24,225 nucleotides of DNA from Candidatus Woesearchaeota archaeon. GTDB lineage: Archaea > Nanobdellota > Nanobdellia > Woesearchaeales > UBA525. Positions 3,987 through 4,145 of this stretch are shown in pieces. The DNA lies in the NCBI GenBank assembly GCA_023252315.1, contig JAJPEB010000001.1:1-24225 (forward strand), written 5' to 3'. Position numbers and translations under genes: made by a program. The notes beneath the pieces were generated by a model, which searched no databases, was not told the origin of the DNA, and saw only the letters and a program-made list of their open reading frames with translations. Positions within the stretch are counted from its first letter, which is position 1. Each line of letters opens with the position of its first letter.

Positions 3987-4145
3987 ATCCTGGATGCTGC
4001 CTTGGAATCGAACAGGAGAGGAGCCGATTCGCTCGGAACGCGAGGCGTTCCGGCGCGCTGGAAATCTCAGATTTCCATCGCATGCAGGCTCCTCGACGTA
4101 AGACCGCGCAACGGAGTGAGCTCGATGCTCCGCAGCATCCAGGAT
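3987..4145 (+). repeat. Structured intergenic repeat, copy A
   Basis: 14-bp terminal inverted repeat ATCCTGGATGCTGC/GCAGCATCCAGGAT, inner 8-bp stem 4018-4025/4087-4094 and two hairpins. Shares four exact 10-11-nt blocks with copy B. Confidence 0.85.

Follow-up and report, generated by a model that had tools for sequence, protein, structure and literature searches.

A repeated three-way junction in the genomes of Woesearchaeota archaea, probably a non-autonomous mobile element with a conserved fold

In this study, which was based on a 24,225-nucleotide stretch of archaeal DNA (hereafter the window) and on the assembly in which it is contig 20, we describe a family of repeats that is probably a non-autonomous, structured mobile repeat (MITE-like) of the Woesearchaeota archaea. 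On one strand, the element is a three-way junction that consists of a closing stem (P1), a CUU bulge, a 4-bp stem and two hairpins, P2 and P3. Its many copies are intergenic, they occupy some orthologous sites and not others, and their distribution among relatives is patchy, all of which argues for a mobile repeat. DPANN genomes are among the smallest and most tightly packed known, yet at least 57 copies were found in this one and more than 90 in a relative. The family joins a MITE-type spread, with an IS630-type partner in one lineage, to a branched fold, two properties that are usually separate, and its covariation is as strong as that of a bona fide structured RNA in a fold that a transposase does not need. 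It therefore makes a case for asking what selects the shape of a mobile repeat, be it RNA processing, transcript insulation or the binding of a host factor.

Architecture of the element and its copies in the window

The unit is bounded by the two strands of the closing stem and measures approximately 90 nt in its compact form, and one or two twin-hairpin modules extend it to approximately 200 nt. The core of P1 is GCUGC/GCAGC (also GCCGC/GCGGC and GUCGC/GCGAC), to which 0-9, mostly 2-5, variable outer pairs are added. It is followed by a nearly invariant 3-nt bulge, mostly CUU, and by the 4-bp stem, GGAG/CUCC or GGCG/CGCC, which is 99% paired. A joiner of 5-6 nt then leads to P2, a 10-11-bp hairpin that has the loop GAUUCAUGCA and a base of either two A-U pairs or tandem G.A/A.G. 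P2 is connected by the joiner CGUAAAAC to P3, a 6-bp hairpin with a 5-nt loop, from which another 5-nt joiner leads back to the 4-bp stem. The conserved unpaired nucleotides are those of the CUU bulge, the GAUUCAUGCA loop and the CGUAAAAC junction. The first-pass annotation, which was made from the letters of the window, had described a conserved core with expandable hairpin arms. This description was borne out, as a 51-nt twin module composed of two YGGAAA-loop-UUUCCR hairpins occurs optionally in the P2 loop, in the P3 loop or in P1. Hairpins of the GGAAA type were found 42 times inside the listed elements and at chance level in coding DNA and elsewhere in the genome. Several subtypes of the element exist, and a hammerhead or K-turn reading of the tandem G.A was rejected because one subtype has A-U pairs in place of G.A.

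The window holds three copies. Copy A (3987..4145, plus strand) is a full element, in which a 14-bp closing stem P1 (3987-4000 paired with 4132-4145) encloses the CUU bulge (4001-4003), the stem P1b (GGAA at 4004-4007 with the UCC of 4129-4131), the hairpin P2 (4013-4098, including the tandem G.A at its base) and a weak P3 region (4106-4121), all on the plus strand. The 51-nt twin-hairpin module of this copy (4031..4081, plus strand) lies in the P2 loop, between GAUUC and AUGCA. The nested hairpins previously proposed for copy A fold as claimed, with a minimum free energy of -68.6 kcal/mol and z = -4.5 against shuffles (RNAfold). Copy A is flanked by the stop of a DUF7502 gene on one side and by the start of a MoxR(AAA_3)-DUF58 ORF on the other, and is antisense to both. 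Copy B (22905..22998, plus strand) is compact and represents a subtype that has another P2 loop, GAGGCGGAGCC, and is present at two further places in the genome; its neighbours are the divergently oriented AglB/STT3 and PPIase/SurA-like genes. When the sequence was re-read, the four exact blocks that had been reported as common to A and B were found where they had been placed. Copy C (1642..1785, minus strand) is lengthened by a segment of approximately 42 nt that separates P3 from the closing stem's 3' strand, and its true 3' block, GCUCCGCAGCGCC, is at 1645-1657; it closely follows the MoxR-DUF58 ORF and has the same sense.

The membership of these copies was assessed with a covariance model (R1) that was built from 12 compact copies taken from other contigs. 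Copy A scored 54 bits (E 3e-9, matched span 3990-4142 on the plus strand), copy B 45.7 bits (E 3e-7) and copy C 46.4 bits for 1684-1785, so that against a model built from 12 other copies the three ranged from E 3e-9 to 3e-7. Thus, of the family of four copies that had been proposed, A, B and C stood (46-54 bits). The fourth stretch, D (11229..11330, minus strand), reached only 8 bits (E = 4, with the filters off) and folds no better than its shuffles (z = -0.8). It has the first (5') block only, its 3' block is wrongly oriented for stem closure, and it overlaps the stop codon of an HD-domain gene. We conclude that D is a chance look-alike. The single-sequence fold z-scores of B, C and D were weak. 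The statement that every copy sits upstream of a TATA promoter held only loosely, since TATA boxes occur 40-95 nt away on either side, as is expected in short intergenic spacers.

As the annotation had suggested, the element belongs to no named RNA family; the Rfam scan gave no relevant match. In the E-value scan of the whole window, the only match was a weak, unrelated one to sR17, an archaeal C/D-box sRNA, at 477-519 on the plus strand (20.8 bits, the gathering score being 36; E = 0.65). The C, D', C' and D boxes are recognisable in this stretch, which lies within an ORF call, and the match may be due to chance. A tRNA scan found none.

It is worth mentioning that, at 1855-3879 of the window (minus strand), MoxR (AAA_3) and DUF58 are read as one ORF of 674 aa. 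In a relative of the same genus (L113:10165-12199), they are two genes, and the 229-nt spacer between them holds a copy of the element. The linker of the ORF (2709-3098) has no DNA similarity in any relative. The ORF could be a real fusion or could include a stop-free spacer in GC-rich DNA.

Copy number, covariation and strand preference

The assembly comprises 1.18 Mb in 151 contigs, with a GC content of 67% and a completeness of 88%. A pattern of the first block was found at 33 places in the genome, and at approximately 29 of these the last block follows 60-200 nt further on. The seed alignment, whose structure was written by hand, was 93% paired and contained 14 pairs that were changed on both sides. 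The genome-wide covariance-model search that the first-pass annotation had proposed was performed with R1 at a threshold of E <= 0.01, and it returned 57 copies, A, B and C among them, which measure 86-206 nt and have a best E of 1e-22. Several more copies that carry large inserts were missed by the model, so the family has at least 57 members here. All of the copies are non-coding and intergenic, and they overlap crude gene calls only at the (mis-called) ends of genes. Their spacers are tandem with the element antisense in 19 cases, tandem with the element in sense in 12, convergent in ten and divergent in eight. Among the copies, there was no orientation bias relative to GC skew (27 vs 30), AT skew or gene strand. 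The copies have no AT peak resembling a promoter at a constant distance upstream, and hence no dedicated promoter is evident. The 40 nt upstream of the copies are pyrimidine-rich (0.62), independently of the neighbouring gene, and the first 25 nt downstream are mildly purine-rich. The complement of the conserved loop, as a possible pairing target, was not found elsewhere in the genome. Degenerate relics of the element are also present in the genome.

Covariation was evaluated on 78 matches, 74 of them distinct, which came from several genomes and were aligned to the model, a fit that somewhat favours the structure. The co-varying stems that had been claimed from the copies in the window were confirmed in this larger set, as compensatory changes on both sides were found at 27 of the 28 pairs across the 74 distinct copies. 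Standard pairs made up 91.5% of the pair cells compared to 68% in shuffles and 32-50% with slid partners, and none of the 500 shuffles reached any one of the measures. The margin over the controls is very large despite the model-fitted alignment. The reading in which the copies would be a coincidence of local GC-rich palindromes with no common origin is therefore extremely improbable. The genome does have 67% GC, the z-scores of B, C and D are weak, and D is indeed due to chance; however, 57 matches to the model with E down to 1e-22, the same order of blocks in every copy, covariation that greatly exceeds that of the shuffled and slid controls, and the presence of the family in other genomes all speak against it.

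Several observations bear on the strand on which the fold is maintained. G-U pairs occupy 42 cells and A-C mismatches 24. At the base of P2, 98 cells are G.A or A.G, which would be C.U on the opposite strand. Moreover, the written (sense) strand folds more stably than its complement in 39 of the 57 copies (p = 0.007). The excess of G-U, the G.A cells and the stability of the sense strand together indicate that one strand is selected, either as RNA or as single-stranded DNA.

The comparison of each copy with its nearest neighbour in this genome revealed 56 compensatory double changes against 35 one-sided changes that break a pair, an excess that is approximately ten times that expected from independent mutation. 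The exchange of whole hairpins between copies could contribute to this excess; the copies are mosaics that have one hairpin in common and another not. The median identity between nearest neighbours is 0.86 and the listed copies are all at least approximately 10% apart. No listed copies are near-identical, which counts against current mobility in this genome. Two copies that R1 had missed are 95% alike, and their likeness ends at the closing stem.

Distribution among relatives and mobilisation

Within the same GTDB family, 11 of the 18 other genomes carry the element according to R1, with copy numbers from 0 to at least 92. In the same genus, the counts among the matches listed by R1 were 0, 0, 0, 1, 2, 11, 54 and at least 92. 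In 22 other families, each represented by one genome, R1 found no element. A broader model, R2, which was applied to 151 genomes of the order, revealed four further carriers in other families, i.e., only four of the approximately 135 other sampled families in the order carry it. The exact-pattern matches that were confirmed by the model all came from Candidatus Woesearchaeota MAGs or from obviously related mislabelled bins, which identifies the host as a Woesearchaeota-type member of the DPANN archaea. Eight bacterial exact-pattern matches were rejected by the model and are due to chance, as was a single match to the two-block pattern among viral contigs rejected. The GC content of the element ranges from 0.41 to 0.64 and follows that of the host, which argues for a long residence in each lineage.

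A search for empty sites in relatives, another check that the annotation had put forward, was informative. The locus of copy A is empty in nine relatives, the three nearest of which have a spacer of 45-52 nt compared to 287 nt here, and copy C is absent in three. Conversely, this genome lacks a copy at four sites that are occupied in relatives. In one relative, in which MoxR and DUF58 are separate genes, a copy lies between the two, at another position in the same neighbourhood. At approximately six comparable orthologous sites, not one copy was common to both genomes. These comparisons were made across species at approximately 70-80% identity, at which exact insertion boundaries are not readable. 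In one relative, in which 290 kb was compared, two-sided synteny was found at three loci only. An exact look-up of the neighbouring DUF7502 protein for near-identical strains with an empty site returned no record.

Evidence of how the element can move came from one genome of another family (100% complete, AT-rich), in which many matches had identical scores. There, the element is armed: its 134 bp comprise a 21-22-nt arm starting TAGTTAGCGGC, a 91-nt core with all of the hallmarks and an inverted arm ending GTCGTCGACTA. Thirteen identical copies are present, and all 13 are flanked by a 3-bp direct target duplication, each of them different. The end of an insertion sequence (IS) at a contig end has 19 of 22 arm bases in common with the element and is followed by an ORF of 151 aa with HTH_23/29/32/33 matches. 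A complete IS of 1007 bp was found in other Woesearchaeota MAGs (L188:2450-3456, L190:2450-3456). It belongs to the IS630 family, as its 152-aa HTH OrfA overlaps a 169-aa DDE_3 OrfB by 16 nt, and it has the same ends as the armed element (TAGTC...ACTA) and 3-bp target duplications of arbitrary sequence. For IS630-type elements, the usual target duplication is TA. Judged from these shared ends and duplications, an IS630-family DDE transposase moves the element as DNA in this one other lineage. Together with the empty orthologous sites, this version bounded by terminal inverted repeats and target duplications upholds the MITE-like mobility that had been suggested. The core is absent from the complete IS, which has no room for it. 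The core is thus a passenger between borrowed ends, and for that reason the transposase cannot be what keeps its shape. As for the IS itself, the OrfA family has more than 230 relatives, many of them on contigs of approximately 1 kb. In addition, in another Woesearchaeota genome, a complete armed copy with the duplication AAG is followed 40 nt downstream by a gene for a DDE_Tnp_IS240/rve_3 transposase (L161:566-1369) that has a TATA box of its own; this arrangement points to a cluster of mobile DNA at the contig end.

In the genome under study, the ends of the element are those of the closing stem, with its conserved GCUGC/GCAGC core and variable pairs, and the same is true of 20 copies of the relative that has at least 92. 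Neither in this genome nor in those 20 copies were inverted-repeat arms found beyond the closing stem. Adjacent target duplications of 2-5 bp were sought in this genome; at k = 2, six were observed against 4.2 expected, and at k >= 3 there were none. Offset longer direct repeats around the copies were also not found here, and no conserved tetranucleotide or flank accompanies the foot of the stem, the flanks being variable. As had been noted for the window, no cognate transposase is present, and this extends to the whole assembly, in which IS630-type OrfA/OrfB, DDE_3, Y1, TnpB and reverse transcriptase were not found. A self-comparison of the genome revealed no repeats longer than 370 bp, and neither the assembly nor the 19 genomes of its family yielded an IS with the same ends as the element. 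Across the family, Y1_Tnp, TnpB, RVT_1, DDE_3 and IS630-type OrfA/OrfB showed no link to copy number. Since the assembly is an 88%-complete bin of 151 contigs and ISs are often missing from bins, the absence of an enzyme weighs little as evidence. A retroposon (SINE-like) or a derivative of a group II intron was also considered and rejected, as RVT_1 was not found here or in the two other highest-copy genomes and no offset direct repeats were detected; a test for the A-rich tail of a retroposon showed only the mild purine richness of the 3' flank.

Competing explanations and known repeat families

The first-pass annotation had also suggested a route through hairpins of single-stranded DNA, in which the element would be REP/REPIN-like or derived from IS200/IS605 and a Y1 (HUH) transposase, leaving neither arms nor duplications, would mobilise its folded single strand. 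Such a route would explain why the copies here have no arms or target duplications and why their fold is strand-specific and strongly conserved, and Y1_Tnp genes do exist in three genomes of the family. However, one of these three carriers has zero copies, and neither Y1_Tnp (PF01797) nor the TnpB zinc-ribbon (PF07282) had a match here or in the two other highest-copy genomes. The presence of TnpB-type domains is unrelated to copy number across the family, there is no conserved tetranucleotide beside the foot of the stem, the orientation of the copies shows no bias with local GC skew (27 vs 30) or gene strand, and the sole mobilisation that was demonstrated is by a DDE transposase. The suggestion did not hold up well, and we regard a Y1 route as unlikely.

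A different explanation is that the element is a functional RNA family, i.e., small RNA genes or a cis-acting module for processing, insulation or protein binding, which would be selected in place, its spread by a transposon being incidental. The conserved unpaired nucleotides and covarying stems that persist across an element GC of 0.41-0.64 are in agreement with this, as are the strand-specific signals (tandem G.A, G-U in excess of A-C and the better folding of the sense strand). The cores are intact here though no arms or duplications are visible, and as the core is not in the IS that moves it, it would be selected by something besides transposition. Moreover, the archaeal splicing endonuclease cuts a geometry in which a 3-nt bulge is followed by a 4-bp helix and then a loop (bulge-helix-loop), and the invariant CUU bulge, the 4-bp helix and the loop of the element appear to resemble such a site. 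The 4-bp helix, however, often gains a fifth pair, and the opposite second cut site would fall in the junction, where there is no defined second 3-nt bulge, so the endonuclease motif is a tentative one. Selection in place also fits poorly with the lack of a promoter-like AT peak at a fixed distance, with the occurrence of copies in either direction with respect to the adjacent genes (19 antisense, 12 sense, ten convergent, eight divergent), with the range from 0 to more than 90 copies within one genus, with the lack of any common copy at approximately six comparable orthologous sites and with the existence of degenerate relics. On balance, a functional RNA family selected in place seems doubtful to us. 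We also propose, tentatively, that the junction could be a functional RNA module that is ferried by transposon ends, the copies together forming a mobile, structure-selected RNA network. A host factor would then cut or bind the junction and thereby insulate or process transcripts in very short spacers. If this were true, DPANN archaea would carry a mobile RNA network whose structure is under selection.

Under the preferred reading of a non-autonomous mobile repeat, a second selection that acts on the single strand and goes beyond the needs of the transposase would keep the fold and the conserved loops, and we infer that it most likely acts on read-through RNA. A compact RNA fold that is recognised by a protein or nuclease would make insertions in very short spacers tolerable. 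The population in this genome appears to be old, given that no near-identical copies are listed and no arms or target duplications are visible; its movement has probably ceased or else depends on an enzyme outside the assembly.

Full-text literature searches returned no description of the element, and it can be compared with several known families. Among these, RUP of Streptococcus pneumoniae carries inverted repeats that resemble those of IS630-Spn1, which is presumed to mobilise it in trans (PMC3049150). Both RUP and Correia/NEMIS of Neisseria are, like the present element, non-coding, multicopy, intergenic sequences of 100-150 nt that fold stably; the two are MITEs of the IS630/Tc1 type, and RUP has ends in common with an IS630-type IS in the same way as the armed Woesearchaeota version. 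The element differs from both in its archaeal (DPANN) host and in its interior, which is a covarying three-way junction with conserved loops and neither a simple hairpin nor derived from an IS. It also differs in the duplication of the armed version, which is 3 bp of any sequence and not TA, and which, together with the arms, is absent in this genome. The REP/BIME/REPIN sequences with their RAYT are also numerous intergenic palindromes that are conserved in structure, variable in sequence and free of target duplications. In contrast to them, the element is larger and branched, forms no inverted doublets, has no flanking tetranucleotide and is accompanied by no Y1/RAYT here.

The ERIC/IRU repeats of enterobacteria are insert-bearing, structured and intergenic, have a large size range, are probably untranslated parts of mRNA and have no convincing transposase. 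BOX of the pneumococcus is similarly modular and intergenic, is probably transcribed in untranslated parts of mRNA and has no convincing partner transposase (PMC3049150). Both have optional internal units, as does the element with its 51-nt module at three places, and BOX, like ERIC, varies widely in size. There is, however, no relation in sequence, and the element forms a junction in which almost all pairs covary and resides in archaeal hosts with genomes of approximately 1 Mb. Among the archaea, MITEs are non-autonomous elements that are moved in trans in Sulfolobus, Halobacterium, Haloquadratum and others, according to a 2024 review of prokaryotic MITEs (PMC10969869), in which a term search found no DPANN case and no conserved three-way junction.

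In practical terms, such repeats break assemblies and will pass for novel RNA genes in comparative screens. Many copies lie within approximately 300 nt of contig ends, some of them at less than 150 nt (e.g., on contigs 49, 100, 114, 119, 30, 33, 80 and 15). This proximity suggests that the repeat breaks short-read assembly, and 57 is probably an underestimate of the true number of copies. A second short repeat, TCTCCTGTACTTCTCTGGGAC, of approximately 30 nt with the tail ACGCGAC, has 22 copies in the genome, none of them inside the window (examples are at 3401-3421 of contig 28 and 2159-2179 of contig 92). It was found zero times in the 18 other genomes of the family, and its reversed control also gave zero. 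Approximately 13 of its copies are located 0-34 nt upstream of junction elements, in a constant orientation and mostly beside the GGCG subtype, and the repeat may constitute a 5' module of the element that is specific to this lineage.
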